Shown: positions 9,100 to 46,334, numbered from the stretch's first letter. The stretch: DNA of 64,000 nucleotides from a candidate division WOR-3 bacterium (GCA_965649205.1 CBFGJV010000007.1:1-64000); one strand, 5' to 3'. The notes: generated by a model not told the origin, from the letters alone. Numbers and translations: made by a program.

Positions 9100-9104
9100 C
9101 CGTG

Positions 9105-9269
9105 ATGGATTACGCTTTTCGTCCTCTGCTTGCTTGTGATTTGGGGCCGGCCTGGAGCGGTAGTGGGGGCGGAAAGTGGGACACAGAGGCCAGTAGCTCT
9201 AACGGCAGAGCGGCGGACTCCAAATCCGTAGGTTGGGGGTTCAAATCCCTCCTGGCCTGTAGTCTTTAG
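9105..9269 (+). other. Candidate bridge ORF rpmG to secE (54 aa) reading through tRNA-Trp
   Basis: GTG 9102/ATG 9105 just after the rpmG TAA; open through the tRNA; TAG 12 nt before the secE GTG. Confidence 0.35.
9187..9259 (+). tRNA. tRNA-Trp(CCA)
   Basis: AGGCCAG/CTGGCCT acceptor stem, CTCCAAA loop; conserved rpmG-trnW-secE position. Confidence 0.95.
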
Positions 9270-9281
9270 AGGTGTAGACGC

Positions 9282-9473
9282 GTGAACATTTTCAAGCGTA
9301 TCAGGAACTACCTGGCGGAAGTAGTGGCGGAGCTGAAAAAGGTTTCATGGGTGAAACGTAAAGAGCTTTTCACTACGACCTTGGTAGTGATTATCTTTTC
9401 TACTATTCTGGCGGCGTTTATTTTTATCTTCGACTTTATCTTTTCCCGCCTTTTGCATCTGATTTTGAGTTAG
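9282..9473 (+). CDS. secE: Preprotein translocase subunit SecE
   Basis: ELKKVSW motif plus one TM helix. Confidence 0.95.
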   Translation: MNIFKRIRNYLAEVVAELKKVSWVKRKELFTTTLVVIIFSTILAAFIFIFDFIFSRLLHLILS

Positions 9474-9488
9474 GCGGGGTAGCAAGAA

Positions 9489-10013
9489 ATGAAGTTTTTC
9501 GTAGTCCATACTTACACCGGGCGAGAGCGCAAAGTGAAAGAATTGTTGGAAAAGGCGATCGAAGCCAACGGACTGAAGGATATATTCGGCCGGGTCATAG
9601 TTCCGGCCGAGAAAGTGACTCGGGTGAAAAAATCCCGGTTGGTGCCGGATGAACGTCAGCTGTATCCTGGTTACATAATGGTAGAAATGGAGCCGGTGGA
9701 AAAAGCGTTCAATCTGGTAAACTCCATACCCGGCGTAACGCATATGCTGGGTACTCGGACCGAGCCGATAGCTTTGACTGACGAGGAAGTGCAGGCTACC
9801 TTGGATCAGATCGAACGAGGTTTGACACAGGCGCAGCCGGAGGTGCCTTTCGAGAAAGGGGAAAATGTCAAGGTAACAAAAGGACCTTTTGCCGGCTTCA
9901 CAGGGCAGGTGGAGGAAATTTTTGCCGAGCGGCGGCGAGTGAAGGTAACTGTAACTATTTTCGGCCGGCCTACACCGATAGATTTGGATTTTCTTGATGT
10001 ACAGCCTATCTGA
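9489..10013 (+). CDS. nusG: Transcription termination/antitermination factor NusG
   Basis: YPGYIMVEM, KOW GPFAGFTG, IFGRPTP. Confidence 0.97.
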   Translation: MKFFVVHTYTGRERKVKELLEKAIEANGLKDIFGRVIVPAEKVTRVKKSRLVPDERQLYPGYIMVEMEPVEKAFNLVNSIPGVTHMLGTRTEPIALTDEEVQATLDQIERGLTQAQPEVPFEKGENVKVTKGPFAGFTGQVEEIFAERRRVKVTVTIFGRPTPIDLDFLDVQPI

Positions 10014-10119
10014 AATTAGCGTACCCAGGTTTTCTTTGTACCGGGTGTCCGATGAGCTCCGTGAGAGCAGGACATGTCCGGAGGTTAGAGTTTTGCTAGG
10101 AGGAGCGAGCAATGGCTAA
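9997..10119 (+). other. Candidate bridge ORF nusG to rplK (40 aa)
   Basis: ATG 14 nt before the nusG stop; open across the 98-nt spacer; ends ATGGCTAA on the rplK start. Confidence 0.35.
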
Positions 10120-10540
10120 GAAGGTTGCAGCGGTTGTGAGACTGCAGATTCCAGCTGGTCAGGCAACGGCGGCGCCACCGGTGGGTCCCGCGTTGGGACA
10201 GCACGGAGTAAACATTGCGGAGTTTATCAAAGCGTTCAACGAGGCTACCCGCAAAGAAACGCCGGGCATGATCATCCCTGTGGTTCTTACTATCTACACA
10301 GACCGCAAGTTCACATTTGTGACCAAGAGCCCGCCCGCGTCAGTACTCCTGAAGCAGGCCGCGGGTCTGGCAAAGGGTTCCAGCGAGCCGAATCGGGTCA
10401 AAGTCGGAGTGATCAGCCGGCAGGCAATACGAGAGATAGCGGAAAGGAAAATGAAAGACCTGAATGCCAATGACCTAGAGGCGGCAATAAAGATTATTGA
10501 AGGTACCGCCCACACGATGGGACTGACGGTGGAGGATTAA
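10112..10540 (+). CDS. rplK: 50S ribosomal protein L11
   Basis: [14 protein letters not shown]. Confidence 0.98.
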
Positions 10541-11238
10541 TGCGGCATAGCAAGCGTTTTCGCAAGGCTACAGAAGGATTGCAGCCGCAGCGAGTATACG
10601 GGCTGGGGGAAGCACTGGACCAGATCAAGGCCAGGGCAACGGCGAAGTTCGACGAATCTGTGGATATAGCAGTACGTCTGGGCATAGACCCGAAGAAGCA
10701 AGATCAAGCGGTGCGAGGCACGGTCAGCCTGCCGCATGGGACGGGCAAACAGGTGAGGGTCCTGGTGTTCTGCAAGGGAGACAAGGAAGCCGAGGCTAAG
10801 GCTGCCGGTGCTGATTACGTCGGTTTTGAGGACTTGGTGCAGAAGATAAACGAGGGTTGGCTGGAATTCGATGCCGCGGTGGCCACACCGGATACCATGC
10901 CGGTGGTGGGTCGACTGGGCAAGATACTAGCTCCCAAGGGTCTTATGCCTTCGCCTAAGACTAAAACAGTTACCTTTGACGTCGGTCAGACTGTGGCTGC
11001 ATTGAAAGCCGGTCAGATTAGCTACCGGACAGATAAGACTGGAAACGTCCACGCCCTAGTGGGAAAAGTTTCCTTTGACCGGCGTCAGTTGGCGGAGAAT
11101 GTGCGGGCTTTTGTAAGCGAACTGGCGAGAGCCAAGCCGGCGTCCGCTAAGGGACAGTTCATCAGAAAAGTGGTGCTTTCTTCTACCATGGGGCCGGGTT
11201 TTAGAATTGATCTGCGGGAGTTTCCAGGGGTGGTATGA
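10540..11238 (+). CDS. rplA: 50S ribosomal protein L1
   Basis: KFDESVD, LPHGTGK, GLMPSPK, STMGPG. Confidence 0.98.
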   Translation: MRHSKRFRKATEGLQPQRVYGLGEALDQIKARATAKFDESVDIAVRLGIDPKKQDQAVRGTVSLPHGTGKQVRVLVFCKGDKEAEAKAAGADYVGFEDLVQKINEGWLEFDAAVATPDTMPVVGRLGKILAPKGLMPSPKTKTVTFDVGQTVAALKAGQISYRTDKTGNVHALVGKVSFDRRQLAENVRAFVSELARAKPASAKGQFIRKVVLSSTMGPGFRIDLREFPGVV

Positions 11239-11294
11239 GGAAAGTAGAAACGAGTACTGTGCCACCGGGTATCAGGAGAGAAGACTATGCCTAA
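11235..11294 (+). other. Candidate bridge ORF rplA to rplJ (19 aa)
   Basis: ATGA overlap with the rplA stop; ends ATGCCTAA on the rplJ start. Confidence 0.4.
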
Positions 11295-11820
11295 GCAGGA
11301 AAAAGTGCTGGAAGTAGCCAAGCTCAAGGAGCTGCTTTCTGGAGCTTCGGCGATATACTTCGTGGATTTTACCGCCATTCCGGCGAACGATTTTAATCAG
11401 GTACGGCGGCGTCTGCGCGAAAACGGAGCCGCTGTGCGCGTAGCCAAGAACAGGTTAGCCCTTAGGGCACTGAAGGAATGTGGTCTGGCTGAAGGTGTGG
11501 ATAAGTTTTTGCGCGGTCCTACTTCTTTGGTAATAGGTTCGGAAGATCCGATAGCCCCGGCCCGTGTTTTGCGCGAGCTACAGAAGAAACTGGAGAATCT
11601 GAAAGTAAAGGGTGTCTATCTAGACGGGACAGCGCATCCGGCTGACCGGTTCAATTATCTGGCAACGCTGCCGACCAAGGCTGAGTTGCGGGCTGAGGTA
11701 GTGGGTGTTCTGGCCGGACCGATTTCTGGCCTGGTATGGGCCTTGGAAGGACTGTTGAGCGAGTTTGTGTATGTGGTGGAGGAAGTGGCGAAAAAGTCCT
11801 CGCCGGCAGAGGGTGCGTAG
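11287..11820 (+). CDS. rplJ: 50S ribosomal protein L10
   Basis: VAKNRL, GPT, LATLPTK; gene order. Confidence 0.96.
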   Translation: MPKQEKVLEVAKLKELLSGASAIYFVDFTAIPANDFNQVRRRLRENGAAVRVAKNRLALRALKECGLAEGVDKFLRGPTSLVIGSEDPIAPARVLRELQKKLENLKVKGVYLDGTAHPADRFNYLATLPTKAELRAEVVGVLAGPISGLVWALEGLLSEFVYVVEEVAKKSSPAEGA

Positions 11821-11887
11821 GAAGAGAATTGCTGCTACTAAGTCACATCGTGTGAGTTGATTGTAAGAATATATGTCAGGAGGAATA

Positions 11888-12286
11888 ATGGCAGAAGGTA
11901 AGGTTCAGCAGGTAATAGAGGCAATTGAAGGTTTGACAGTTACAGAACTGGCGAGCCTGGTAAAAGAGCTCAAGGAAAAGTTCGGCGTTACCGGTCCGGC
12001 GGTTATTTCAGCGGGCGCCATGCCGACAACCGGACCTGCCGGGGCGGCTGCGGCAGAACCTGCAGCTGAGGAAAAGACAGAGTTTACCGTGCAGCTTGTT
12101 TCGGTTGGAGACAAGAAGATTCAGGTTCTGAAGGAATTGCGCGCCGTCACCCAGCTGGGACTGAAAGAGGCCAAAGACATTATTGACGGGGTTCCCAGCA
12201 TTATCAAAGACAACGCTTCCAAGGAAGAGGCGCAGAAGATAAAGGCGAAGCTGGAAGAGGTTGGAGCCAAGGTTGAAATAAAGTGA
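11888..12286 (+). CDS. rplL: 50S ribosomal protein L7/L12
   Basis: EEKTEF, LGLKEAK; AGGAGG RBS before ATG 11888. Confidence 0.98.
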
Positions 12287-12420
12287 CGCGAGGCGTCACC
12301 CTGAGAGAAACGGCGCGGGTGCCGGCAGCAGAGTTTTTCTTCGAACAGATTTCTGTTGCCGGCCTTATTACCGGATCAGAAGGCGCTTCGAGACGCAGAA
12401 AATGGAGGCTACCGGGATGA
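12283..12420 (+). other. Candidate bridge ORF rplL to rpoB (45 aa)
   Basis: GTGA overlap with the rplL stop and ATGA overlap with rpoB ATG 12417; no internal stop. Confidence 0.45.
12321..12369 (+). terminator. Attenuator-like hairpin in the rplL-rpoB spacer
   Basis: GCCGGCAGCAGAG pairs with TTCTGTTGCCGGC (two G-U pairs), followed by a weak CTTATT tail. Confidence 0.5.
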
Positions 12421-15400
12421 AGCAGAAGGATTTCTCCAAGGCCGGTACCCTGCTGGAGATACCGAACCTGCTTTCACTCCAGCTTAGTTCTTTTGCCGAC
12501 TTTGTGCAGTACGGCGTGGAGCCGAGCAAGCGCAAACGGCAGGGCCTGCAGCTGGTACTGGAAGAAACTTTTCCCATAGAGGATCAACAGAAAGACTTCA
12601 GCCTGGAGTTTGTGCACTATACCATAGGGGAACCAAAATATACGCCGGAAGAGGCAATAGCCAAGGGTGCAAATTACGCCCTTCCGCTCAAGGCTGTCTT
12701 CCGCATGGTACGGCGAGACCCCAACTCCAGTTCAGGCCGGCCGGCAGAGGTGCTAGAGCAGGAAGTGTTCTTCTGCGACCTGCCCTGGATGACAGCCAAC
12801 GGTACCTTCGTTATCAACGGCGTAGAGCGCGTGGTAGTGAATCAGTTGCATCGAGCTCCTGGGGTGTACTTTGGTCAAGAGGGCGGCGAGTATTCTGCCT
12901 TGCTGGTTCCCCTGCGCGGGGCTTGGTTTGAAGTGGTGGTGGACAAACACCGAACCATGGTGGTGCTTCTGGACCGAAGGCGGCGTATTTCTGCGGCTAC
13001 CTTCATGCGGGCGATAGGTGTTACGCATGAAGAACTGGTGGAGAGTCTGTATGAGGTAAAGCTGTGCAAATTGGCTACCGGCCAGATGATTGCCCGTACT
13101 ATTCGGGGCGATGATGCCGTGTATGCGAGGCCGGGAGACATGGTAACTGAAGGCCTGTTGGAGTTTCTCGCCAGCCGGGGGGTGACTGAGGGATATGTGG
13201 TGGATGCCGAACTGCCAGGTGTAGATATACTGGCTAATACTTTGCAGGCGGACAAGACCGAATCACGCGAGGAAGCCATCAAGCAGATTTATTACCGTCT
13301 GCGTTCCATCGCTCCTCATTCCCTGGAAGTGGCAGAGAACGTTATCGTGGGGATGTTGTTTGACCCGAGGCGCTTCGAACTGGCCGAGGTGGGACGCTAC
13401 AAGTTGAATCGCCGGCTGATGCGGGATGTACCGTTGACCGAGACGGGGCTTCTGAAGGGGGATGTGCTTGCCATAATGTCTCATCTTCTGGCCATAGCCG
13501 GCGACGCTCGGCTGCGGCGGATTAGATGCACGGCTAGAAGCGAAAAAGAAAGAAATACGATTTTGACAGCATTGCGAGATGTAGGTTTAGAACCGGGGGA
13601 GTACTTCTGGCACGAGCGTCTTGGTTTTGTGGACCTGGTGTATCGGCAGGGTGGTGCCGGAGAACGCGCCGAGGAGTTTCTGCGCAACTCGGGTATAACC
13701 TTTACCAGCGAGTTTATCCGTTATCAGCTGGACGACGTAGATCATCTGGCTAATCGACGTGTGAAACAGGTAGGCGAGCTTCTGGAAAATCAGTTCCGGG
13801 CCGCCTTGATGCAGTTGGCTCAGAGCATCAGGGAGCGGGCGGCTTTCGTGGATGACAGTCAGCTTACACCGCAGGAATTGGTCAATACGCGCGTCGTAGC
13901 TAATGCGGTGATGAAGTTCTTTACGCAGAGCCAGCTCTGTCAGTTTATGGAGCAGACCAACCCTCTGGCCGAACTTACGCACAAACGGAGGGTCTCTACT
14001 CTGGGTCCGGGAGGATTGACCAGAGAAACAGCGGGATTTGAGGTGCGAGACGTGCACTATTCGCACTATGGACGTATATGTCCTATCGAGACGCCAGAAG
14101 GGCCCAATATCGGTCTTATCTCGACTCTTTCCACATTTGCGCAAGTGGACCGGTATGGTTTTATAGATACGCCTTACTGGCCGGTGCGGGACGGGAAAGT
14201 TTTGATGGAGCCGGGTAAGCAGGTTTATCTGAACCCGGAGGAAGAGGAGAACTACACTATCGCCCAGGCCAATACTCCGCTGGATGCCGAAGGCCGGTTT
14301 GTAGGTAATGAAATAGTATGCCGTCGGCAGGGAGACGTGGTGACAGTTCCACCGGAGCAGGTGGACTTCATGGACGTTTCCCCCATGCAATTGTTTTCTC
14401 CTTCCACTATTCTCATTCCGTTTCTAGAGCATGACGACGCCGACCGGGCTCTCATGGGCTCCAACATGGAGCGACAGGCGGTTCCGCTTCTGGTTCCGCA
14501 GAAGCCTCTGGTGGCCACCGGGGTAGAACAGAAGTTTGCTACCGAGTCCGGAGCGGTATTGCGGGCGCAGGAAGCGGGAACGGTAGTTAAGGTAGATGCG
14601 CGTACCATTGTGGTACGTTCCGAGGCGGGCTTGACCGAGTATCGCCTGCTGAAGTACAAGAAGTCCAATCAGTACACTTGTCTGTCGCAGCGACCGGTGG
14701 TGAAGGTGGGAGACGTAGTAAAGAAGGGGGATTTGCTGGCCGATGGCCCGGCTACCGAGGACGGACAACTGGCCATGGGACGCAATGTTTTTGTGGCTTT
14801 TGTTCCCTGGCGCGGATACAACTACGAGGACGCCATCATAGTCTCGGAAAAGCTCTTGGCAGAGGACGCCTTTACCTCCATACAGATATTGGAGTTTGAG
14901 ATTCAGGCGAGAGAAACCAGGCTGGGCGCAGAAGAAATTACCCGTGATATTCCTGGTGCTACCGAGGAGGAGCTGAGCAATCTGGATGATTTCGGCATTA
15001 TTCGCGTAGGTGCTGAAGTTGGACCCGGGGATATTCTGGTGGGGCGGATTACTCCGAAGGGAGAAACGGAGTTTACGCCGGAAGAGAGGTTGCTGCGCGC
15101 TATTTTCGGGGAGAAGGCTTCTAACGTGAAAGATACTTCTCTACGAGTGGACCCGGGTACCTTTGGAGTAGTGGTAAATCGCCGGATTCTTTCGCGTAAG
15201 CTCAACGATGCAATGAGCCGGCGGCTGGAGCGTGAGAGAGTGCGCGAGGCTGAACACAAGTTTGAGTTGCGTAAGCAGTTTCTGGTTGAGCGCAGGAACA
15301 GTAAGCTGCGCGACCTGCTGCGGGGGCAGAAGGCGGCTGCACCGGCGAGGGATGCTAAAGGCCGAATAGTGCACAAGGCCGGGCATCCCATCACGGATGA

Positions 15401-16370
15401 ATTTCTCGAGTCAGAAGAGTTTTTGAAGGTGAGAAATTACGAGCAACTGGTGTCGAATCCCAAGAAGCAGCAAGCTATCCGGCAGGCATTGAAAGAATAC
15501 GAAGAAGAGTTGGAGCAGGCGGAGAAGGAGAAACAGCAGGAACTGGAGAGAATGGCTACTGGTGATGAGTTACCGCATGGCGTATTGAAGTGGATTACCA
15601 TCTTCATTGCTCAGAAGCGTCGCCTGTCATGCGGAGACAAAATGGCCGGAAGACACGGTAACAAGGGTGTAGTAGCCAAAGTGCTTCCTGTGGAGGATAT
15701 GCCCTATATTTCGGTTGCAGCAGACAGTCCTGATGCTTCAGAGACAATAAAGAATATGCGCGGGTTGCCGGTGGATTTGGTGCTCAATCCTCTGGGAGTT
15801 CCTTCGCGTATGAACCTAGGACAGGTGTTGGAAACACATCTGGGCTGGGCTGCCAGTGTGCTTGGGTATCAGGCCATCTGTCCGGTGTTCCGGTCGGCCA
15901 CTCCGGAGGAGATAAAAGAGGAATTACGGGCAGCCGGATTGCCGGAGGATGGCAAGATAGTTCTCTACGACGGTCGTACCGGTGAGCCTTTCTTGGAGAA
16001 GGTCACAGTAGGCATGATCTATATGATGAAACTGATACATATGGTTGACGACAAAATTCATGCGCGTTCCACCGGCCGTTATTCGTTGATTACCCAGCAG
16101 CCGCTGGGCGGTAAGGCTCAGTTTGGCGGACAGCGATTCGGGGAGATGGAGGTGTGGGCTCTGGAGGCCTACGGGGCGGCTCATGCTTTGCAAGAAATGC
16201 TTACCATCAAGTCTGACGATGTGGAAGGAAGAAGCGTGCTCTATGAAGCTCTTATCCGGGGTAAGAACCCGCCGCGGCCAAAGCCGCCAGCCTCTTTCTC
16301 GGTGCTGGTGAGGGAACTGCAAGGTCTGGGTTTGGAGCTAATTCCTGAACGCTTGGAGGAAAAAGCATGA
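12417..16370 (+). CDS. rpoB: DNA-directed RNA polymerase subunit beta
   Basis: GTFVINGVERVVV, ETPEGPNIGL, GDKMAGRHGNKGVV, GGQRFGEMEVWA. Confidence 0.99.
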   Translation: MKQKDFSKAGTLLEIPNLLSLQLSSFADFVQYGVEPSKRKRQGLQLVLEETFPIEDQQKDFSLEFVHYTIGEPKYTPEEAIAKGANYALPLKAVFRMVRRDPNSSSGRPAEVLEQEVFFCDLPWMTANGTFVINGVERVVVNQLHRAPGVYFGQEGGEYSALLVPLRGAWFEVVVDKHRTMVVLLDRRRRISAATFMRAIGVTHEELVESLYEVKLCKLATGQMIARTIRGDDAVYARPGDMVTEGLLEFLASRGVTEGYVVDAELPGVDILANTLQADKTESREEAIKQIYYRLRSIAPHSLEVAENVIVGMLFDPRRFELAEVGRYKLNRRLMRDVPLTETGLLKGDVLAIMSHLLAIAGDARLRRIRCTARSEKERNTILTALRDVGLEPGEYFWHERLGFVDLVYRQGGAGERAEEFLRNSGITFTSEFIRYQLDDVDHLANRRVKQVGELLENQFRAALMQLAQSIRERAAFVDDSQLTPQELVNTRVVANAVMKFFTQSQLCQFMEQTNPLAELTHKRRVSTLGPGGLTRETAGFEVRDVHYSHYGRICPIETPEGPNIGLISTLSTFAQVDRYGFIDTPYWPVRDGKVLMEPGKQVYLNPEEEENYTIAQANTPLDAEGRFVGNEIVCRRQGDVVTVPPEQVDFMDVSPMQLFSPSTILIPFLEHDDADRALMGSNMERQAVPLLVPQKPLVATGVEQKFATESGAVLRAQEAGTVVKVDARTIVVRSEAGLTEYRLLKYKKSNQYTCLSQRPVVKVGDVVKKGDLLADGPATEDGQLAMGRNVFVAFVPWRGYNYEDAIIVSEKLLAEDAFTSIQILEFEIQARETRLGAEEITRDIPGATEEELSNLDDFGIIRVGAEVGPGDILVGRITPKGETEFTPEERLLRAIFGEKASNVKDTSLRVDPGTFGVVVNRRILSRKLNDAMSRRLERERVREAEHKFELRKQFLVERRNSKLRDLLRGQKAAAPARDAKGRIVHKAGHPITDEFLESEEFLKVRNYEQLVSNPKKQQAIRQALKEYEEELEQAEKEKQQELERMATGDELPHGVLKWITIFIAQKRRLSCGDKMAGRHGNKGVVAKVLPVEDMPYISVAADSPDASETIKNMRGLPVDLVLNPLGVPSRMNLGQVLETHLGWAASVLGYQAICPVFRSATPEEIKEELRAAGLPEDGKIVLYDGRTGEPFLEKVTVGMIYMMKLIHMVDDKIHARSTGRYSLITQQPLGGKAQFGGQRFGEMEVWALEAYGAAHALQEMLTIKSDDVEGRSVLYEALIRGKNPPRPKPPASFSVLVRELQGLGLELIPERLEEKA

Positions 16371-16444
16371 GGGAGCGTTGCGGGGTACAGATAGAAAACG
16401 AAGAGCGGGCAAGGGATGAAGTAGGAGGAGGGTGGAAGCGATGA
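16367..16444 (+). other. Candidate bridge ORF rpoB to rpoC (25 aa)
   Basis: ATGA overlaps at both ends; GGAGG 7 nt upstream. Confidence 0.45.
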
Positions 16445-19400
16445 TAGCTGACAGAGATTTCAGAGATTTTGATGCGCTTCGGCTGAGGCTGGCTTCGCCT
16501 GAGACAATCCGCAGCTGGTCTTCGGGAGAGGTGGTAAAGCCGGAGACGATCAACTACCGGACGCAGAAACCGGAACGTGATGGTCTGTTCTGCGAGCGGA
16601 TATTCGGTCCGGTCAAGGATTACGAATGTAACTGCGGAAAATACAAGAAAATTCGTTATAAGGGCATAGTCTGCGACCGTTGCGGCGTGGAGGTGACCAC
16701 TTCTTCTGTACGCCGGCACAGAATGGGCCATATCGATCTGGTGGTACCGGTTGCGCACACCCTGTTTTACCAGGTGCCGCCTTCGAAGATAGGGCTGATG
16801 CTGGCTCTCACCATCAATCAGGTGGAGACAATTCTGAACTACGAGGCGTACATAGTAATAGAGCCGGGCGATTCTCCGTACAAGAAGAATGAACTTCTGG
16901 CTGAGGAAGACGTGCGCGAGTGCCGGTCTCGCTATGAGGGCTTCCAGGCCGACACAGGTGCACCGGCTCTGAAGACACTTCTGAGCAAAGTCGAACTTGA
17001 CGACTTGGCCGCAGAGCTGCGCACACGTATAAAGCACGAGACTTCGCGGCGTTTTGATTTGTTGCGCCGGTTACGAGTGGTGGAGGCTTTCCGTTCTTCG
17101 GGGGCACGTCCGGAGTGGATGATACTGGATGTGTTGCCAGTCATACCTCCGGACCTGCGACCGCTGGTACCTCTGGAAGGAGGCCGTTACGCTACAAGTG
17201 ACCTGAATGACCTTTACAAGCGAGTTATAGTAAGAAACAACCGGTTGAAGCATCTGATGTCCATCAAGACACCGGACATCATTCTCAAGAATGAGAAGCG
17301 GATGTTGCAGGATGCGGTGGACACGTTGTTTTCCAATGAGACCCGGCCGCGACCAGTAAGGGGCAGAGGTAATCGGCCGCTGAAGTCGTTGTGCGAGGCG
17401 TTGCGTGGTAAACAGGGCAGGTTCCGACGGAATCTGTTGGGTAAACGGGTGGACTATTCGGGTCGGTCGGTGATAGTGGTGGACCCGACCTTGAAGCTGC
17501 ATCAGTGCAGTCTTCCGAAGGAGATGGCACTGGAATTGTTCAAGCCGATGATTTTGCGGGAACTGGAAGCAAGACATCTAGCCGAGTCAGAGCGCGGAGC
17601 CAAGTCCATGTACCGCCGAGAAGCGCCGGAAGTGTGGGAAGTGCTGGAAGAGGTCACTAAAGACCATCCGGTACTGCTGAACCGGGCACCTACTCTACAC
17701 CGGGTTTCCATAGAAGGATTCTTCCCGGTTTTGTCCGAACAGAGGGCCATCGGCATACATCCTTTGGTCTGTCCGCCTTTCAACGCCGATTTTGATGGCG
17801 ATACGATGTCCGTGCATGTGCCTCTGACTCCAGAAGCCATCATGGAGACCGCGGTACTGACGCTGTCTTCCCACAATATTCTGTCGCCGGCCCACGGTCG
17901 GCCCCTGATGGTTCCTTCTCAGGACATCGTGGCGGGCGTGTACTTTATGACCAAGGAGAGACCTTCCCTGGGAAAGGCGAAGAAGCATTTTGATGACTTT
18001 GCCACGGTGCGTTCTGCCTACGAGCTGGGTGAGCTGCAGGTGCACGAGCCGGTAGTGTTCCATTATGGCGGCCAGCGGTACGAAACGACAGTGGGGCGTG
18101 TATTGTTGAACGAGGTGTTGCCCGAACAGTTGCGGTTTGTGAATGAGACCTATGCGAAGGACAAGCTGACGGCATTGATCGATCGGTGTGCCCGCAAGCT
18201 GGGTATGGATACGACTGCGCGGTTGCTCGATGCTATAGAAGAGCTGGGTTTTGAGATGGCTACCAAATCCGGTCTGTCTATCGGGATGGAAGATGTAGCT
18301 GTGCCGGAGGAAAAGGCAGAGGTTTTGGAGCGTTCAGAGAAGGCGTTGCGGCGGGTGTACCGGGCATACGAGAAAGGTCAGATGACAGACTCAGAAAAGT
18401 ACAATCTGGTTGTGAATACTTGGACGCTGGCCACGGCAGAAGTGGAAGAAGCGTTGATGAAGAAGCTGAGCCAGGATAGAGAAGGTTTTAATCCGGTATT
18501 CATGCTGATTGACTCGGGGGCACGAGGTTCACGCACGCAGGCCGCGCAGATCGGCGGTATGCGGGGGTTGATGGCGAAGCCGCAACGTCGTTCGGTGGGC
18601 GAAGAAGTAATAGAAACACCCATAAAGAGCTCTTTCCTCGAAGGACTGTCGGTGTGGGAGTATTTCATTTCCACCCACGGCGCACGCAAGGGGCTTACCG
18701 ATACGGCTCTGAAAACAGCCGAGGCCGGGTATTTGACCCGCAGGCTGGTGGATGTGGCCCAAGACGTGGTCATCACGATGGAGGACTGCGGTACCATTCT
18801 GGGGCAGGAGGTAACCGCGCTCCGTGAGGGGGGCGACATAGTTGAGCCGTTGTCGGAACGTATTGCCGGTCGGTTTGCGGTGGACGATGTGGTCAACCCG
18901 GTGTCAGGTGAAGTAATCGTGCGGGCGGGGGAGGAAATTTCAGACGAGGCAGCGGAGGAGATTGAAGATTACGGTATCGAGTCGGTACGGGTCAGGTCGG
19001 TACTCACCTGCGAGGCTCCTACCGGTTTGTGCGTAAAATGTTATGGGCGGAATTTGGCCACGGGTCGTCTGGTGGAAATCGGTGAGGCGGTGGGTACAGT
19101 GGCGGCCCAGTCTATCGGGGAACCTGGAACTCAGCTCACCTTGAAGACTTTCCACGTAGGCGGTGTGGCCGCGCGGGTGGCAGAAGAAACCAAGGCGGTG
19201 GCCAAGTTTCCCGGCAAGGTCAAGTTCGAAGGTTTGAATGTTTCGGTTCGAAGCGATGGCGAGACTGTGGCTCTGGATCAGGGTCGGATTATTGTTACCG
19301 CGCCGGACCGTGCTGTGCCGTTCAATGTCCCAGCCGGGGCAGTGATAAGGGTGAAAGACGGCCAGGATGCGACAGAAGGCGAAATTCTGTTTGAGTGGGA

Positions 19401-20475
19401 GCCTTATTCTATACCGATAATGGCCCGTGTGGCGGGAAAGGTTGTCTATCACGATATTGAAGTGGGAATTACGCTGCGGGAGGATATTGACGAACATACC
19501 GAGAGGATGCAGCGCATTATTACCGAGGACCGGCGGCGCAAGTTGCATCCTCGGATTACGATAGTTGACGACAAGGGTAAACCGCTGGACAACTACGCTC
19601 TACCTACGGGTGCATATCTGGTGGCGGACAATGGGATTTCGGTCTTGCCGGGTGACACCCTTGCCCGTTTGCTCAAGGAGATGGGGCGTACCCGAGACAT
19701 AACTGGCGGTCTGCCCAAGGTAGCCGAGCTGTTTGAGGCCAAGCATGTCAAGGACCCGGCGGTAATCTCCGAAATAGACGGAACGGTGTATGTGGGTGAG
19801 CCCAAGGAGGGCGTGCGGGAGGTTAAGGTTGTGTCCGAGGGTGGTACGGAGAAGGTCTACGAGATTCCCTACGGTAAGCATATGCTGGTGCAGACTGGCG
19901 ATAAGGTGGCTGCCGGCGATAAACTGTGCGAGGGAGCGGTGGATCCCCACGATGTTCTGCGGGTCAAGGGCTGGCTGGCAGTGCAGGAGTTTCTCACCAA
20001 TCAAATTCAGGCAGTTTACCGTTTGCAGAAGGTGAAAATAAACGATAAACATATCTCGGTGATCGTGCGGCAGATGTTACGCAAGGGCAAGGTTCTGGAT
20101 GCGGGTGATTCCAGCTTTATAGAAGGTGAGATTGTAGAACGGCGAAGACTCTACGAGGAAAACCAGAAACTGGTGGCGGAGAATCTGCGCCCGGCAACGT
20201 TTCAACCCATACTTCTGGGTATTACCCGGGCCGCACTGCTTACCGAGAGTTTCCTTTCTGCAGCATCTTTCCAGGAGACTACCCGGGTTTTGTCCGAAGC
20301 TGCGATTCAGGGACGCTTGGACAGACTGCGTGGTTTGAAAGAGAATGTCATCGTGGGACGGCTGGTTCCGGCCGGAACCGGCTTCCGCGAGTTCAGTCGT
20401 ATCAAGCTTGTGGAAGACGAGAAGAAAAAGCCGACACATGAGGCAAAGGAAACACAGGAGGTGGCGGAAGAATGA
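16441..20475 (+). CDS. rpoC: DNA-directed RNA polymerase subunit beta'
   Basis: NADFDGD catalytic motif, Zn fingers, trigger loop with an SI3-type insertion; alternative GTG start at 16432. Confidence 0.99.
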   Translation: MIADRDFRDFDALRLRLASPETIRSWSSGEVVKPETINYRTQKPERDGLFCERIFGPVKDYECNCGKYKKIRYKGIVCDRCGVEVTTSSVRRHRMGHIDLVVPVAHTLFYQVPPSKIGLMLALTINQVETILNYEAYIVIEPGDSPYKKNELLAEEDVRECRSRYEGFQADTGAPALKTLLSKVELDDLAAELRTRIKHETSRRFDLLRRLRVVEAFRSSGARPEWMILDVLPVIPPDLRPLVPLEGGRYATSDLNDLYKRVIVRNNRLKHLMSIKTPDIILKNEKRMLQDAVDTLFSNETRPRPVRGRGNRPLKSLCEALRGKQGRFRRNLLGKRVDYSGRSVIVVDPTLKLHQCSLPKEMALELFKPMILRELEARHLAESERGAKSMYRREAPEVWEVLEEVTKDHPVLLNRAPTLHRVSIEGFFPVLSEQRAIGIHPLVCPPFNADFDGDTMSVHVPLTPEAIMETAVLTLSSHNILSPAHGRPLMVPSQDIVAGVYFMTKERPSLGKAKKHFDDFATVRSAYELGELQVHEPVVFHYGGQRYETTVGRVLLNEVLPEQLRFVNETYAKDKLTALIDRCARKLGMDTTARLLDAIEELGFEMATKSGLSIGMEDVAVPEEKAEVLERSEKALRRVYRAYEKGQMTDSEKYNLVVNTWTLATAEVEEALMKKLSQDREGFNPVFMLIDSGARGSRTQAAQIGGMRGLMAKPQRRSVGEEVIETPIKSSFLEGLSVWEYFISTHGARKGLTDTALKTAEAGYLTRRLVDVAQDVVITMEDCGTILGQEVTALREGGDIVEPLSERIAGRFAVDDVVNPVSGEVIVRAGEEISDEAAEEIEDYGIESVRVRSVLTCEAPTGLCVKCYGRNLATGRLVEIGEAVGTVAAQSIGEPGTQLTLKTFHVGGVAARVAEETKAVAKFPGKVKFEGLNVSVRSDGETVALDQGRIIVTAPDRAVPFNVPAGAVIRVKDGQDATEGEILFEWEPYSIPIMARVAGKVVYHDIEVGITLREDIDEHTERMQRIITEDRRRKLHPRITIVDDKGKPLDNYALPTGAYLVADNGISVLPGDTLARLLKEMGRTRDITGGLPKVAELFEAKHVKDPAVISEIDGTVYVGEPKEGVREVKVVSEGGTEKVYEIPYGKHMLVQTGDKVAAGDKLCEGAVDPHDVLRVKGWLAVQEFLTNQIQAVYRLQKVKINDKHISVIVRQMLRKGKVLDAGDSSFIEGEIVERRRLYEENQKLVAENLRPATFQPILLGITRAALLTESFLSAASFQETTRVLSEAAIQGRLDRLRGLKENVIVGRLVPAGTGFREFSRIKLVEDEKKKPTHEAKETQEVAEE

Positions 20476-20507
20476 TATATCTGATGTTATGTCGGGAGGC
20501 GGACTAA
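20472..20507 (+). other. Candidate bridge ORF rpoC to rpsL (11 aa)
   Basis: ATGA overlap with the rpoC stop; TAA ends 1 nt before the rpsL ATG. Confidence 0.35.
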
Positions 20508-20508
20508 T

Positions 20509-20892
20509 ATGCCTACAACAAACCAACTGGTAAGAAAACCGCGTGTCAAGGTACCGCCGCGGTCAAAAACACCGGCTCTGCGGGGCAATCCGCAGAAGCG
20601 GGGTGTGTGTACACGCGTCTATACAACTACACCCAAGAAGCCCAATTCTGCCTTGCGTAAGGTTTGCAAGGTGCGTCTCACGCACGGTCAGGAAATAACC
20701 TGCTACATACCGGGCGAGGGACACAACCTGCAGGAACACGCTGTCGTGCTTGTACGCGGAGGACGTGTAAAGGATCTCCCTGGTGTACGTTATCATGTAA
20801 TACGAGGTGTACTGGACGCAGCCGGGGTAGAAGGACGCAGGCAGGGACGCAGCCTGTACGGCGCCAAACGGCCTAAGAGTCAATCTGGATAA
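20509..20892 (+). CDS. rpsL: 30S ribosomal protein S12
   Basis: [22 protein letters not shown]. Confidence 0.99.
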
Positions 20893-20904
20893 AGGGAGGT
20901 ACGG

Positions 20905-21375: not shown

Positions 21376-21393
21376 GCAGCTCAGAGTTTTCCT

Positions 21394-30409: not shown

Positions 30410-30991
30410 ATGTCAGAAGTTCTGGAAATACGCTGGCACGGCCGCGGCGGGCAGGGCGCAAAGACAGCGGCGCTTCTGTTTGGCGAGGCTGCGCTCGATA
30501 CCGGCAAATTCATTCAGGCTTTTCCGGAGTACGGGCCGGAGCGAATGGGCGCGCCAGTACAGGCTTTTAACCGGCTCTCGGATAAACCAATTAGGACTCA
30601 CTCCGGCATCAAGGAGCCGAAGATAGTCGTGGTACTGGATGCTTCGCTCATCGAAACAGCTCGGGTCACCGAGGGTCTGAAGGAGGGTGGTATTCTGCTA
30701 GTGAACACCACCGAAACGCCTGAGGAGTTGCGTAAGAGGTTAAAATTGCCCGAGAACATTAAGGTTTACGCAGTTGATGCGTCGAAGATAGCGATGGAGA
30801 CAGTGGGAAAGAACGTGCCCAATACACCAATGCTTGGAGCGTTGGTCAAAGTTACAGGCGTTTTGGATTTCGAGTCAATGATGAGGGCTATCGAGCAGAA
30901 GCTCTCGGAGAAGTTTAGAGGCGGCAAGGAAAAATTCATCAAGCCCAACTTGGAGTCGGTGCGTCGGGCGTATGAAGAGGTAAAGGGATGA
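30410..30991 (+). CDS. porG: Pyruvate/2-oxoacid:ferredoxin oxidoreductase gamma subunit
   Basis: EIRWHGRGGQG, FPEYGPERMGAP, PNTPMLGA. Confidence 0.93.
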   Translation: MSEVLEIRWHGRGGQGAKTAALLFGEAALDTGKFIQAFPEYGPERMGAPVQAFNRLSDKPIRTHSGIKEPKIVVVLDASLIETARVTEGLKEGGILLVNTTETPEELRKRLKLPENIKVYAVDASKIAMETVGKNVPNTPMLGALVKVTGVLDFESMMRAIEQKLSEKFRGGKEKFIKPNLESVRRAYEEVKG

Positions 30992-31029
30992 GGGAAAGTA
31001 ATAGAAGGACGGCGATATGGCGAAATTGA
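30988..31029 (+). other. Candidate bridge ORF porG to porD (13 aa)
   Basis: ATGA overlap with the porG stop; TGA overlaps the porD start by 13 nt. Confidence 0.3.
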
Positions 31030-31307
31030 AAAGCTGGAAGGAACTGCCCTGCGGGGCGATTATTGATGACCCGAAGGCGGTACTGGAGAACAAGACCGGT
31101 GCTTGGCGTTCGCAGCGGCCGGTGTGGAACAAGGACAAATGTCTCCATTGTTTGACTTGCTGGATTTACTGTCCTGACGCAGCCATCATTGTCAAAGACG
31201 GTAAGAATTACGGTATAAACTACGATTATTGTAAGGGTTGCGGTATCTGTGCTTCGGTTTGTCCAAAGAAGGTGCAGGCGATAACGATGGAACAGGAGAG
31301 AAAATGA
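31017..31307 (+). CDS. porD: POR delta subunit (2[4Fe-4S])
   Basis: KTGAWR, CLHCLTCWIYCP, CKGCGICASVCP. Confidence 0.93.
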   Translation: MAKLKSWKELPCGAIIDDPKAVLENKTGAWRSQRPVWNKDKCLHCLTCWIYCPDAAIIVKDGKNYGINYDYCKGCGICASVCPKKVQAITMEQERK

Positions 31308-32458: not shown

Positions 32459-32461
32459 GTG

Positions 32462-32542
32462 ATGAGGACTGATTTCAGACACCAGATACCAGATGTCAGA
32501 TTGCAGAACAGGATGCAAAAGGAGCAGACATGGCGCGGCTAA
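32462..32542 (+). other. Candidate bridge ORF porA to porB (26 aa)
   Basis: GAGG then ATG 3 nt after the porA stop; TAA overlaps the porB start by 13 nt. Confidence 0.4.
32474..32508 (+). repeat. Five degenerate heptamer repeats (core CAGA, period 7)
   Basis: CAGA at 32476, 32483, 32490, 32497, 32504. Confidence 0.7.
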
Positions 32543-38182: not shown

Positions 38183-38221
38183 ATGGTTTGTGCGGCGATA
38201 GGCAAAAATAGCAATCGGTAA
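38183..38221 (+). other. Candidate bridge ORF map to infA (12 aa)
   Basis: ATG 9 nt after the map stop; TAA 6 nt before the infA ATG. Confidence 0.25.
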
Positions 38222-38227
38222 TTAGGT

Positions 38228-38446: not shown

Positions 38447-38454
38447 GAGGTTTT

Positions 38455-38571
38455 GTGAAGGTTAGAACTTCAGTGAAACCACGTTGTGCTCACTGCAAGG
38501 TGGTCAGACGCAAGGGCGTGGTGCGGGTAATCTGTAAGCGCGAACCCAAACATAAACAGAGGCAGGGCTAG
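38455..38571 (+). CDS. rpmJ: 50S ribosomal protein L36
   Basis: Manual translation from [50 protein letters not shown]. Confidence 0.96.
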
Positions 38572-38574
38572 AAG

Positions 38575-38637
38575 ATGCCCGTAGCCGCGTGTCCGGCACG
38601 GCGGCTGATGTACGGCAGTAGGCCCCTGCGAACCTGA
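38575..38637 (+). other. Candidate bridge ORF rpmJ to pyrG (20 aa)
   Basis: ATG 3 nt after the rpmJ stop; TGATG overlap with pyrG, which has no SD. Confidence 0.45.
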
Positions 38638-42023: not shown

Positions 42024-42837
42024 AATGGGAAACGACTCTCAAGGCAGCGATGCTCGGCAGGTAAGTGCGGGTAAAGGAACGCAGCCCTTGCCTCCGTCTC
42101 GGCCCGGGGAAAACGGTAAGCGGCTACGGGCAGAGGGTCTGGTAAAAACCTACGGAGGCAGAAAGGTGGTGAACGAGGTTAGCCTGGAGCTATCTCAAGG
42201 AGAAGTGGTAGGTCTATTGGGCCCCAACGGTGCGGGAAAGACTACTACATTTCATATGATTACAGGCTTTGTCCGACCCGATCAGGGGCGAATCTGGTTA
42301 GATGGCACTGATATGACGGGAATGCCGGTGTATCGGCGTGCGCGGTTGGGACTGGGGTATTTGTCCCAGGAGCCCTCTATTTTTCGCAAGCTTTCCGTGC
42401 TGGACAATGTGAGGGCAATTCTGGAAATGGTGGGCTATGAGCGAGCAAGGATTGACGAGCGGGCAAGGGAGTTATTGGCCCGTTTTAATGTGTTGCACCT
42501 GGAGAAACAGCAGGGTGCCACTCTTTCTGGAGGAGAAAGGCGGCGGGCAGAGCTGGCTCGGGCTTTGGCTAGCGCACCTCACTTTTTGCTGCTTGATGAG
42601 CCATTCACAGGGGTTGACCCCATAGTGCGGGCGGAAATTCAGGACATAGTGCGTGGGTTGAAAGAAGACGGACTGGGAATTCTCATTACCGATCATAATG
42701 TGCGCGAGACGCTGGAGATAACTGATCGAGCTTACATTATGTACGATGCGCAGGTGCTGCTTTCTGGTACCTCGCATGACCTGGTGAACGACCCGAAGGC
42801 AAGACAGGTTTATCTGGGAGAAAGGTTCCGAATATGA
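42013..42837 (+). CDS. lptB: LPS export ABC transporter ATPase LptB
   Basis: GPNGAGKTT, LSGGERRR, LLDEPF, ITDHNVRETL, VYLGE.F. Confidence 0.96.
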   Translation: MVPEMGNDSQGSDARQVSAGKGTQPLPPSRPGENGKRLRAEGLVKTYGGRKVVNEVSLELSQGEVVGLLGPNGAGKTTTFHMITGFVRPDQGRIWLDGTDMTGMPVYRRARLGLGYLSQEPSIFRKLSVLDNVRAILEMVGYERARIDERARELLARFNVLHLEKQQGATLSGGERRRAELARALASAPHFLLLDEPFTGVDPIVRAEIQDIVRGLKEDGLGILITDHNVRETLEITDRAYIMYDAQVLLSGTSHDLVNDPKARQVYLGERFRI

Positions 42838-44330
42838 AACAAGAGCTGGGAATGGGGTTGGACCAGAGGCAAGTACTGGGTCAGTACCTAACGCCGCAGC
42901 TGGTTCTTAATTTGAAGTTGCTGCAGATGCCGACACTGGAGTTGGAAGCGGTGATTAGGCAGGAGTTGGAGGAAAATCCGGCGTTGGAAGAAGCAGATGA
43001 CGAGGATACAGAAGTTACGGCATGGGAAAGAGAAGAGGAGCCGGTTTTGCAGGTGGCAACCGATACGACAGAGGAATCTGAACAATCGCTACTGCCGGGA
43101 GCAAACGAGGGGTCTCTGGAGCTGCGACCCGGTGAAGTAGACACTCCGGAAGAGCTGCCAGCTGATGCCTATTCATTGGAAGACCTGATGCCTGATGACG
43201 GCGATTTGCCGAGTTTGCCAAGTTCTGCAGGAGGAGAGAATGCTGCTGAGGTCTGGGAGGTGGTGTCCGAGCCGGAGCCGGACCTGCGTGAGGCGTTGCT
43301 GCCGGTACTGCAGACTTTGTTGTCTGCAGATGATGCAGCGGTTGCAGAGAATATTTTTGACTACCTGAACGAGGACGGATTCTTAACAGTAGAAGAGGGG
43401 GAACTGGCACAGATTCTGCAGGTTGACCCTGCCCGCCTGCAGCGAATACTACAGATAATACGGCAGATTGAACCGGGCGGAATCGGTTGCCGCAATCTGC
43501 AACACGCATTTCAGGTGCAGTTGGAGCTTTTGGGTTTTGAGCCGACCAGCTTGGAAAACCAGTTAGTGACTGCGTACTGGGAATTGCTTTTGGCAAAGAA
43601 GATAGACAGAATTGTCCAGTGCTCGGGCGCAAGCGAGGAGCAGGTAAGAAAAGCGCTGGCAAAGATACTGACTCTGGAGACGAGACCGGCCAGAAGGTTT
43701 TCCGCGGTGCGGACTGAGTATGTAATGCCTGATTTCAGCGTGGAATTACGTGAAGGCCGGCCGGTGGTGGAGGCAAACGACAGTTCCCTACCTCGGCTGA
43801 AACTGTCTCGGCAATACGCGGAGATACTGCGTAATCCCAAAGCCTTTTCCAAAGAACAGGTTCAGTTTGCCCGCGAAAAGTTCAACCGCGCGCTCATGTT
43901 CCTGCGGGGAATAGAGTCACGGCGGCGTACGCTCAGGCGACTTATGGAACTCGTGGTCGAGGAACAAAGGGACTTCTTTCTGAAAGGACCGGAGTACCTG
44001 AAACCGGCTACATTGAAAGAGGCGGCTGAACGACTGCAGGTGCACCCTTCTACTGTTTCCCGGGCCACTGCGGGTAAATATGTGGAGACCTGCTATGGCA
44101 TTTTCCCGCTTAAGCATTTTTTCCGGGCCGGGACAGGCGACAGATCGCGTATGAGTATCAGGGAGCGCATAAGGCAGATGGTGGACAATGAGGATAAATC
44201 TGCTCCCCTGAGTGACGACGATATGGTTGCATTGCTGCAAAAGGAAGGTATCAAGGTGGCGCGGCGGACCGTGGCTAAGTATAGACAGGAACTGGGTATT
44301 CCGGGAAGAAATCAAAGGTTGAGAGTTTGA
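42834..44330 (+). CDS. rpoN: RNA polymerase sigma-54 factor
   Basis: LLQM...LE.NPAL, H.STVSR, RpoN box ARRTVAKYR. Confidence 0.96.
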   Translation: MKQELGMGLDQRQVLGQYLTPQLVLNLKLLQMPTLELEAVIRQELEENPALEEADDEDTEVTAWEREEEPVLQVATDTTEESEQSLLPGANEGSLELRPGEVDTPEELPADAYSLEDLMPDDGDLPSLPSSAGGENAAEVWEVVSEPEPDLREALLPVLQTLLSADDAAVAENIFDYLNEDGFLTVEEGELAQILQVDPARLQRILQIIRQIEPGGIGCRNLQHAFQVQLELLGFEPTSLENQLVTAYWELLLAKKIDRIVQCSGASEEQVRKALAKILTLETRPARRFSAVRTEYVMPDFSVELREGRPVVEANDSSLPRLKLSRQYAEILRNPKAFSKEQVQFAREKFNRALMFLRGIESRRRTLRRLMELVVEEQRDFFLKGPEYLKPATLKEAAERLQVHPSTVSRATAGKYVETCYGIFPLKHFFRAGTGDRSRMSIRERIRQMVDNEDKSAPLSDDDMVALLQKEGIKVARRTVAKYRQELGIPGRNQRLRV

Positions 44331-44349
44331 TCAGAGAAGGGCAGGAGCG

Positions 44350-46251
44350 GTGCACGTAGTAGTCGGTACTGCGGGCCACATTGACCACGGGAAGAGCGCC
44401 TTGGTACGGGCGCTTACTGGTACTGACCCGGACCGTCTCAAGGAAGAGAAAGAAAGGGGGATGACCACAGATTTGGGTTTTGCTTTCCTGGGAGACAACA
44501 TAACCATTATAGATGTGCCCGGGCACGAGAAATTCGTCCGTCATATGCTGGCTGGTGCTAGCACCATTGACCTTGTGTTGCTGGTGGTGGCTGCGGATGA
44601 CGGAGTAATGCCTCAGACCAGAGAACATTTTGAGATATGCAAGCTTATGGGAATACGCAAGGGATTGGTGGTAATAAACAAGGCAGACCTGGTGGATGCA
44701 GAAATGCTGGAGCTGGTAAGGCAAGAAATAGCTGCGCTGGCGCAGGGGTCGTTTCTGGAGGGTGCGCCTGTTTTGGTGGTTTCAGCTCTCACTGGTCAGG
44801 GAGTGCCAGAACTCAGGGAGGCTATAGTAGAGATGGCCGGCAGGGTAGAACCCAAGCCGGACAGAGGTGTTTTCCGTATGCCGATAGACCGCTGTTTTTC
44901 TTTGCGGGGTTTTGGTACAGTGGTGGCGGGTACAATTCTTTCTGGTCAAGTACGGGTGGGAGAGCGACTGGAACTTCTTCCTGCTCAGATGGAAGTGCGG
45001 GTGCGGGGAATACAGAAACACAACCGGCCAGCAGATTCTGCCGGTCTGGGAGAAAGAGCAGCGCTGAACCTGCAGGGCGTGGAGCGGGAGACTGTGACGC
45101 GGGGCTGGGTTCTAGCCACCCCAGGCTATTACCAGCCTATGACCAGGTTCAATGCCTGGCTGTATCTATTGAGACAGGACACACGACCTCTGCGGAATCT
45201 TACGAGGTTGAAGCTGCATATCGGTACGGCAGAAAAGATGTGCCGGATTGTGCTTTTGGACAAGAAGGAACTTCTGCCCGGGCAGGAAGCGTACGTGCAA
45301 TGCCGGGTAGAAGAACCGGTGGTATGTGACTGGAATGACCATTTTGTCATCCGTACGTTTGCGCCTCAGCAGACGATAGGCGGCGGGGTAGTTCTAGAGA
45401 CGAATTCGGATAAGGAAAAAAGGTTTGACGATGCGGTCATTCAGCGACTCCGGGCGTTGCGTTCAGGAGAAGCGGGTAGTGTGCTGGAACAGTATCTGAT
45501 AAAAGCGGGACCAGAACCCAAAACTATGTTTCAGGCATGCCGGGACCTGGCCCTGGCTGAGGTGGAGGCGACAAAGATGCTGGAGGTGCTGGTGCGAACC
45601 GGCAGGGTGCGTCGGTTTCAGTGGGAAGCAAAGGAATGGTTAATACATGAACAGTCTTTTGCCCAGGCAGTGGCTGCAATTGAGTCTTTTCTGGCGGATT
45701 TTCACCGGCAGAATCCTTTTCGCCTGGGATTGAGGCGGCCCGAGTTGCGGGTAAAGGCGGGGTTGCCGATTGCGCTTTATGAGGCGGCACTGGCACATTT
45801 GGTGAGCACAGGCCGCATCGCGGTTGAGGCAGAGCGAATAAGGTTTGCAGAACACAGGCTGCAACTGAGTCCAATCGAGCAGAAACACTTTGATCGACTG
45901 AGCAATACTTTTCGAGAGGCGGGTCTGCAGGCACCTTCTCTGGCAGAAGAACTGGCGATGCTGGAGAAGAGAGTGGCAGAAAGAGTGCGGGCTGCGTTGC
46001 TGGAAACAGGCACTCTTGTAGACTTGGGTGAGTCGGTGGTGCTGCATCGCGACACAATACGGGCGGCAGAGGACAAAATACGGCGTCTGTTTTCCCGCAA
46101 GCCGGAGCTGACTGCTTCGGAAATCAGGCAGGAGCTGGGCACGACTCGCAAATATCTGATTCCTCTGCTGAACTACTTTGACTCCCGGGGTATAACGCAA
46201 AGAAAAGGCGAGGTAAGGATTTTAAAGCAGAAAGGAACTACTGACCTGTGA
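44350..46251 (+). CDS. selB: Selenocysteine-specific elongation factor SelB
   Basis: [19 protein letters not shown], winged-helix C-terminus [14 protein letters not shown]. Confidence 0.96.
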
Positions 46252-46334
46252 CTTGTCTGCAGTTACAAGGATCGAGTCTATTACTGGCGCCAAAGAACCG
46301 GCGGCAAATAACCGATAAGGAGTCTAATGGGTAG
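46248..46334 (+). other. Candidate bridge ORF selB to selD (28 aa)
   Basis: GTGA overlap with the selB stop; ends ATGGGTAG on the selD start. Confidence 0.4.

Follow-up and report, generated by a model that had tools for sequence, protein, structure and literature searches.

Mini-ORFs in the operon spacers of the window

The DNA analysed here is a stretch of 64,000 nt from a candidate division WOR-3 bacterium (hereafter, the window), in which several spacers between co-directional housekeeping genes hold a short open reading frame (ORF) that begins on or near the upstream stop codon and ends on or near the downstream start codon. A first-pass annotation had listed 13 such mini-ORFs and read them as a ribosome relay. 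We re-translated all 13 and scored them against shuffled sequences: each translates at the coordinates reported below, and the gene names given to the flanks are backed by Pfam. We refer to a spacer as “bridged” if an ORF starts within 15 nt of the upstream stop, stops within 15 nt of the downstream start, and covers at least half of the spacer (the ±15 rule); an end window extended to −30 nt was added after inspection of the data, and the headline counts stay on the ±15 rule. The chance of a bridge was estimated per case from dinucleotide shuffles that kept the gene ends and the last 14 nt. The ends matched as claimed in 11 of the 13 cases, while nusG-rplK and rplJ-rplL miss the rule.

The same junctions were scored in relatives of the same order: the rpmG-rpsL region was obtained for 39 of the 40, while 29 relatives supplied each of the por, map-infA-rpmJ, and sel regions. 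Gene ends in the relatives were set by tblastn and a start choice that was aware of Shine-Dalgarno (SD) motifs and blind to bridging. Spacers were dropped if shorter than 20 or longer than 300 nt, if they contained N, or if the downstream N terminus did not align, and the tRNA-containing spacer was counted apart. Because the relatives are akin and not independent, p values overstate the significance.

All features described here lie on the plus strand, and offsets are given as ORF start relative to the upstream stop, followed by ORF end relative to the downstream start. The 54-codon frame over the rpmG-secE spacer (9105..9269), offered as a bridge, runs through a tRNA-Trp(CCA) gene (9187..9259; ARAGORN, Rfam RF00005) and is judged to be chance, being bridged in 2 of 38 relatives against 4.0 expected. 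The nusG-rplK frame (9997..10119), of 40 codons, begins within nusG at 17 nt upstream of where the stop codon ends, which takes it outside the rule, and its own stop overlaps the rplK start by 8 nt; 8 of 14 relatives are bridged here (2.2 expected). Between rplA and rplJ lies a 19-codon bridge (11235..11294; −4/+8). This gap (11239-11286 in the window) is shorter than 20 nt in 35/39 relatives and in 4/38 outgroups, where the usual L10 leader RNA would presumably not fit, and three of the four relatives with an expanded gap are bridged (0.8 expected); an Rfam search of the window returned tRNAs only. The rplJ-rplL frame (11813..11860, 15 codons) is a partial bridge that ends 27 nt short of the rplL start (11888), at a junction bridged in 19/34 relatives versus 6.2 expected. 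The rplL-rpoB bridge (12283..12420, 45 codons; −4/+4) occupies a spacer that folds into a long hairpin, though not beyond shuffles (z −0.8). Its neighbor at rpoB-rpoC (16367..16444, 25 codons) has the same −4/+4 geometry, with a GGAGG upstream, inside rpoB; here the gap is below 20 nt in 31/37 relatives, mostly as a −4 overlap, and all six expanded relatives are bridged (2.8 expected). The short rpoC-rpsL bridge (20472..20507, 11 codons; −4/−1), preceded by AGGAGG, recurs in 8/11 relatives (4.2 expected).

Further along, porG-porD holds a 13-codon bridge (30988..31029; −4/+13; 6 of 8 relatives bridged, 3.2 expected), and porD and porA overlap directly by 4 nt (31304..31307). The latter is the unexpanded state of a junction that is a −4 overlap in 21/29 loci; in all eight relatives with an expanded spacer it is bridged (4.0 expected), every time ending at +4. 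The porA-porB bridge (32462..32542, 26 codons) is built around a 7-nt repeat array of five nnnCAGA units and is matched by bridges in 6/7 relatives (1.6 expected). Bridges follow at map-infA (38183..38221, 12 codons; +9/−6; 8 of 10 relatives, 4.7 expected) and at rpmJ-pyrG (38575..38637, 20 codons; +3/+1, with rpmJ at 38455-38571; 13 of 20, 6.5 expected). For rpoN-selB (44327..44359) the frame is present, but the gap measures 19 nt and the chance probability is 1.0, which makes the case uninformative in this genome; among expanded relatives, 6/10 are bridged versus 3.1 expected. Last, selB-selD carries a 28-codon bridge (46248..46334; −4/+8, with the selD start at 46327), and four of six relatives are bridged (1.5 expected).

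RNA folds were sought in nine window spacers, and none exceeded shuffles (z from −0.8 to +0.8). Within 6700-21500, no terminator-like site lies inside a bridged spacer, and one weak promoter-like site does (11861-11889), running onto the rplL start. The chance of a single case, put at roughly 1 in 9 by the first-pass annotation, comes out at 0.1 to 1.0 per case, because an NTGA stop alone supplies a start; summed over the 13 named cases, the chance expectation is ~5.4. Co-directional spacers had also been said to be bridged usually. Of the 20 such spacers of at least 20 nt in the window, only 10 are, with 5.3 expected and with several start calls uncertain.

Bridging across the order and in control genomes

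Most relatives keep these junctions closed, with the genes either overlapping directly or standing only a few bases apart. Where the gap has opened, 92 of 152 spacers are bridged, compared with 41.5 in shuffles. This count falls to 43.5 upon a 1- or 2-nt deletion in the middle of the spacer and stays at 90.9 upon a 3-nt deletion. The excess persists when each genus and junction contributes a single value (55.8/93 versus 23.5), when only ATG starts are counted (64/152 versus 20.6), when the rplJ-rplL junction and the same-genus genome are left out (65/109 versus 30.8), and at junctions absent from the first-pass list (12/22 versus 6.2). It is present in spacers of 20 to 59 nt (38/56 versus 22.8) and larger in those of 60 to 300 nt (54/96 versus 18.8). 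Under a tight end window (−8 to +5 at the start, −5 to +8 at the end), 40/152 spacers in relatives are bridged versus 16.0 expected, and 50/422 versus 32 to 44 in this genome. In two long spacers, the selB-selD spacer of locus L271 (338 nt) and the porG-porD spacer of L227 (264 nt), there are several blocks of short repeats, and two or three mini-ORFs in succession cover part of the gap.

By contrast, the secE-rpsL junctions of 79 named outgroup bacteria from many phyla, from which the top match was excluded because it belongs to the order itself, show no excess (41/282 bridged versus 41.7). Comparing matched junctions at 60 to 300 nt, we obtained 36/68 versus 12.3 for the relatives and 17/191 versus 19.4 for the outgroups. 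Leaders or promoters are probably present in many of the outgroup spacers, and hence not all of them are recent expansions. The 400-kb samples of two AT-rich relatives gave 36/105 versus 22.1 and 23/91 versus 18.4, whereas 400-kb control samples of Clostridium algidicarnis (16/131 versus 17.0) and Christensenella (12/113 versus 17.3) gave no excess.

For the genome at hand, a custom gene caller yielded 1707 genes (88% coding; some small genes, such as rpmG and rpmJ, were missed), from which we took 422 tRNA-free spacers of 20 to 200 nt between confident genes. Bridges occupy 109 of these (26%), while six nulls give 84 to 101 (p from 0.003 to 0.09). This fraction contradicts the earlier proposal of an operon-wide design over most spacers, and universal bridging is rejected. 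Convergent (21/164 versus 24.4) and divergent (7/112 versus 10.6) spacers of this genome show no excess. Taken alone, this genome thus supports an excess of bridging weakly.

A set independent of the first-pass annotation was built from gene pairs that are neighbors in this genome and, likewise, in one of the three 400-kb samples. Such conserved-adjacent pairs are bridged in 69/148 cases versus 44.3 expected (42.2 in the indel control), and pairs with a tight junction in one genome but an expanded one in its counterpart in 35/62 versus 20.2 (18/30 versus 13.0 on this genome's side). Nonconserved pairs gave 15/62 versus 15.7, 19/69 versus 12.5, and 15/68 versus 13.1, and the matching set of Clostridia pairs, at 4/11 versus 2.1, is too small. 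The expectation that bridging exceeds shuffles is hence borne out at the order's conserved junctions, where the excess is strong at about twice chance, but in this genome it is modest and sensitive to the null.

Frame, peptide, and neighboring features

In 92 spacers of at least 60 nt with a start beside the upstream stop, the frame of that start is open in 61, compared with 37 and 37 for the other two frames, and contains 0.035 stops per codon versus 0.065 and 0.063. In the outgroups, the three frames are open in 34, 46, and 40 of 122 spacers. At the far end, 84 frames are free of stops up to 21 nt ahead of the next start, and 72 of these terminate no later than +15 in their own frame, as opposed to 53/84 in the other noncoding frame (p 0.003); the outgroups give 23 and 23 of 37. 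The frame that is kept open is accordingly that of the start beside the stop, and it is also the one that closes at the next start.

The peptides, on the other hand, are free to drift. On four pairs of equal length, the nonsynonymous and synonymous divergences (pN and pS) are 0.21 and 0.25 (pN/pS ~0.8), while the flanking gene shows zero amino acid changes over 78 nt in the one pair checked. None of seven bridge peptides of at least 20 amino acids has a Pfam match, and the codon-pair score of bridges (−0.13) resembles that of shuffled bridges (−0.12) and not that of genes (0.24). The claim that the frame rather than the product is selected therefore stands. Across the six junctions compared, the flanking proteins keep the same terminal residues whether the gap is expanded or not, and therefore the gaps are insertions and not decayed ends. 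In the relatives, 51 of 121 bridge starts have an SD-like motif ahead of them, compared with 27 of 127 other starts.

The rplJ-rplL spacer carries, in addition, a conserved motif at the RNA level: at 11827..11842, 14 of 16 positions are complementary to the organism's own 23S ribosomal RNA (rRNA) at C9:1535-1546 (Rfam RF02541), in what we take to be the L11/L10 binding region. A match of at least 12/16 positions, reaching 16/16, occurs in 22 of 23 relatives of family f1 (L001-L021, L031), and in none of 16 other relatives or 63 outgroups. The motif is read in all three frames in the relatives and supplies a TTG start to some bridges. Genome G008 is the sole f1 genome without the motif; among the 15 f1 relatives whose 23S site was located, it alone has a different base there, which is a single event. 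Pairing of the mRNA with rRNA at this motif may possibly control L7/L12. A literature search with limited reach into subscription journals found no paper on this complementarity.

Several other features were noted. Perfect-consensus sigma-70 hexamers with 16-nt spacing lie at 7547-7574, just upstream of tRNA-Thr and tuf, and this site is the likely start of the long tuf-rpsG transcript. The ribosomal cluster is rearranged at two places: rpoC runs into rpsL-rpsG with no fusA after (20509-21375), and rpmJ is followed by pyrG instead of rpsM (38455-38637). In one relative (L013, G014:C51), a stop splits rpoC, and a second ORF that begins 16 nt downstream encodes the final ~310 residues. A gene resembling TonB-dependent receptors occupies two overlapping frames (26861-28657 and 28534-29343), with a plug domain in the first and a weak barrel match in the second, possibly through a frameshift. 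In selD (46327-47367), codon 15 is an in-frame TGA that follows a Cys-Ala-Gly motif and likely encodes selenocysteine. Finally, selB homologs in L262, L264, L288, G026, and G024 each contain one in-frame TGA inside the match, which may reflect selenocysteine in SelB itself or breaks.

A candidate coupling relay, its rivals, and its precedents

On balance, we lean toward the reading that mini-ORF bridges at widened conserved junctions work as a translational-coupling relay, as the comparison of sequences suggests. Termination-reinitiation coupling almost disappears once the gap measures ~20 nt (PMC10666635), and this loss would be a reason for a relay. After an insertion into a coupled junction, the old initiation site would keep firing: a terminating ribosome would reinitiate beside the upstream stop, cross the gap on the filler frame, and be delivered next to the downstream start as that frame ends there. 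Inserts whose stop-free path ends at the new start would preserve coupling and hence be retained, and the stop-free path may also melt any spacer structure, while other inserts would be purged unless the gene gained its own promoter. In three genomes of family f3 (L030, L034, and L035), the rplJ-rplL spacer shows, by eye, a sigma-70-like promoter of the TTGAC-17-TATAAT type instead, and is unbridged under the ±15 rule. Under the relay reading, bridging would filter how junctions grow rather than reflect a plan for every spacer. It is possible, though we rate this as somewhat less likely, that the whole order keeps its core operons as continuous ribosome relays, in which DNA that widens a coupled junction is kept only if translatable from stop to start.

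A number of observations weigh against the relay. The excess in this genome is small (109/422 versus 94.1 with the SD region kept, p 0.02), shrinks when swapped upstream ends serve as the null (101.2, p 0.09), and loses significance upon removal of pairs with an alternative in-frame upstream start (53/114 versus 47.7; 29/123 versus 26.2). The 400-kb sample of relative G003 shows no excess (19/74 versus 17.8), and neither do the relatives at rplL-rpoB (6/20 versus 5.4), infA-rpmJ (5/19 versus 4.6), or adk-map (2/10 versus 2.1). The same holds for family f3 (3/11 versus 2.5). Spacer indels had been expected to keep frame while the peptides drift; the peptides do drift, but among 33 nonindependent pairs of homologous spacers only 17 differ in length by a multiple of three, and in the 16 pairs with frame-breaking changes the bridge is rebuilt from another start or stop. 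In this genome, SD motifs are not enriched before −4 bridge starts (7/33 versus 12/80). Lastly, 68/92 bridged and 42/60 unbridged downstream genes have an SD of their own, and since most do, they may not need delivered ribosomes.

What else could produce these frames? Remnants of small nonpolar mobile inserts, as proposed for mycobacterial interspersed repetitive units (MIRUs), would place selection on the element instead of on the junction. Cassettes with a PF05635 four-helix-bundle gene and 7-nt arms are the candidates: PF05635 occurs in 25/41 genomes, with up to 31 matches in one and four in this one (cassettes at C20:2831-3145, C29:18283-18597, and C29:14787-15089), and the genes (L290-L319) sit at gene junctions between 7-nt repeat arms that are often mutually complementary, typically purine-rich upstream and the complement downstream. 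The filled site of L314 corresponds to a direct ATGA overlap here, and that of L293 to a gap of ~8 nt; in L297 a cassette appears to split a gene that, from its motif, we take to be methyltransferase-like. Arrays of 7-mers, moreover, occupy 17/79 bridged spacers versus 0.9 in shuffles, including porA-porB of the window, whose purine-rich array (16/21 lag-7 matches) might stem from a cassette left arm. Such arrays are nonetheless found in just 22/152 of the relatives' spacers and 9/381 in this genome, and the excess stays without them (75/130 versus 35.0). Cassette arms are bridged no more than by chance (9/15 versus 7.9; 8/16 versus 6.7), which leaves them unsupported as designed bridges. The window's contig (C7) has no PF05635 match, no filled cassette lies at the window junctions in the relatives' loci examined, and the spacers share no evident sequence. 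Repeats are thus one source of inserts and not the explanation, and we regard an origin of the bridges as such remnants as unlikely. Quite unlikely, too, is that the frames serve to keep the mRNA covered by ribosomes against Rho termination or nuclease attack, with delivery to the next start incidental. The genome does encode Rho (TIGR00767, 664 bits), the excess is larger in the longer spacers, and some long frames stop 16 to 30 nt before the next start, at its SD. The argument from Rho exposure in the first-pass annotation finds no support, however, in composition: Rho utilization (Rut) sites have C>G over 60 to 90 nt (PMC12360218), whereas these spacers are G-rich, with C>G in only 3/92 bridged spacers and 46 of them shorter than 70 nt. 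The stop position of the bridges is frame-matched to the next start, and outgroups show no excess although the four tested for rho carry it.

Chance combined with case selection, in which a start comes free with every NTGA stop, a stop comes free with every NTGA start, and a reader lists the hits, agrees with the high chance values of the individual cases, with the tRNA-Trp frame, and with the small, null-sensitive excess genome-wide. We nevertheless find it decidedly unlikely as an account of the pattern. The roughly twofold excess in relatives, unselected junctions included, vanishes with a 1- or 2-nt deletion and survives a 3-nt one, and it is lacking in the 79 outgroup loci, the two control genomes, and convergent or divergent spacers. 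The chance reading is largely refuted for the order, and it still accounts for roughly half of the individual cases in the window. Finally, we regard it as very improbable that the mini-ORFs encode genuine microproteins or represent decayed remnants of the genes on either side; in favor of this reading, some frames reach 40 to 54 codons in AT-rich spacers with their length kept between species (L024/L026). We reject microproteins on the missing Pfam matches, the shuffle-like codon-pair score, and a pN close to pS, and decayed ends on the unchanged termini of the flanking proteins at the six junctions compared.

The first-pass annotation knew of no earlier description of the design, which set its novelty too high, since the ORFs of MIRUs and of integron attC sites are described as acting in this way. 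MIRUs are said to have been originally described by Supply et al. in 1997. The gene content here (secretin, LptC, POR, SelB) does not, in our assessment, suggest a mycobacterium. According to PMC12548453, MIRUs integrate at start codons, bringing along an ORF that is coupled to the next gene at −4; the likeness lies in a short ORF within an intergenic insert coupled to the next gene, such that insertion harms expression little. The MIRU-like −4/+4 geometry is found at rplL-rpoB and rpoB-rpoC, and the +4 end at the expanded porD-porA spacers, whereas other cases end at −1, +1, +8, or +13. MIRUs are, in that account, one repeated and apparently mobile sequence family; the spacers here look unrelated between junctions in the sets compared, consist of 7-mer repeats in a minority only, and, unlike MIRUs, adjoin ribosomal-protein, RNA polymerase, POR, and sel genes. 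In integrons, short ORFs encoded by attC, and ORF-11/17/18 of attI1, relay ribosomes across a spacer by termination-reinitiation, and PMC8876359 likewise describes nonfunctional peptides in which amino acid changes matter little. Those ORFs are tied to cassette recombination sites and tested experimentally, while the bridges are candidate relays with housekeeping flanks; integron features were not seen here, although no search aimed at them was made.

Classical −4/−1 coupling, which involves subunits of heteromeric complexes (PMC10666635; see also PMC6728339), has the same stop/start geometry as both bridge ends; it joins two real genes, whereas here two such junctions stand in series, parted by a filler frame. 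The TAACTGA heptamers of Beggiatoaceae are likewise 7-nt tandem repeats directly upstream of starts, including those of ribosomal-protein operons (PMC4679880), but they have stops in all frames, while in most of the arrays here the bridge frame remains open, and the unit differs between genomes; PF05635 cassettes, too, share the 7-nt tandem repeats at gene junctions. Bicistronic designs and “nonsense” upstream ORF boosters use a short upstream frame with its stop at the target's start (compare PMC13255528), although these are synthetic, act on a single gene, and bring their own strong ribosome-binding site, whereas here the start comes from the upstream gene's stop. Our literature search, with the limited journal reach noted above, turned up no paper describing bridges at housekeeping junctions that extend over an order and do not depend on sequence. 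What is new is hence this form, a real but lineage-limited advance, as ORF-mediated coupling itself has precedents.

By comparison across genomes, the findings offer evidence that spacers annotated as noncoding are shaped by reinitiation at gene ends. Because the effect is absent at the same junctions of 79 other bacteria, they point to a lineage with an unusual reliance on coupling. The natural alleles of one junction, as overlap, bridged gap, or promoter-bearing gap, suit tests of how far ribosomes travel after termination, and ribosome profiling (Ribo-seq) would call such frames microproteins although their sequence is unselected. If the order-wide relay were true, “noncoding” operon spacers would be under selection for an open frame without selection on the peptide, and such spacers would constitute a standing source of new small ORFs.

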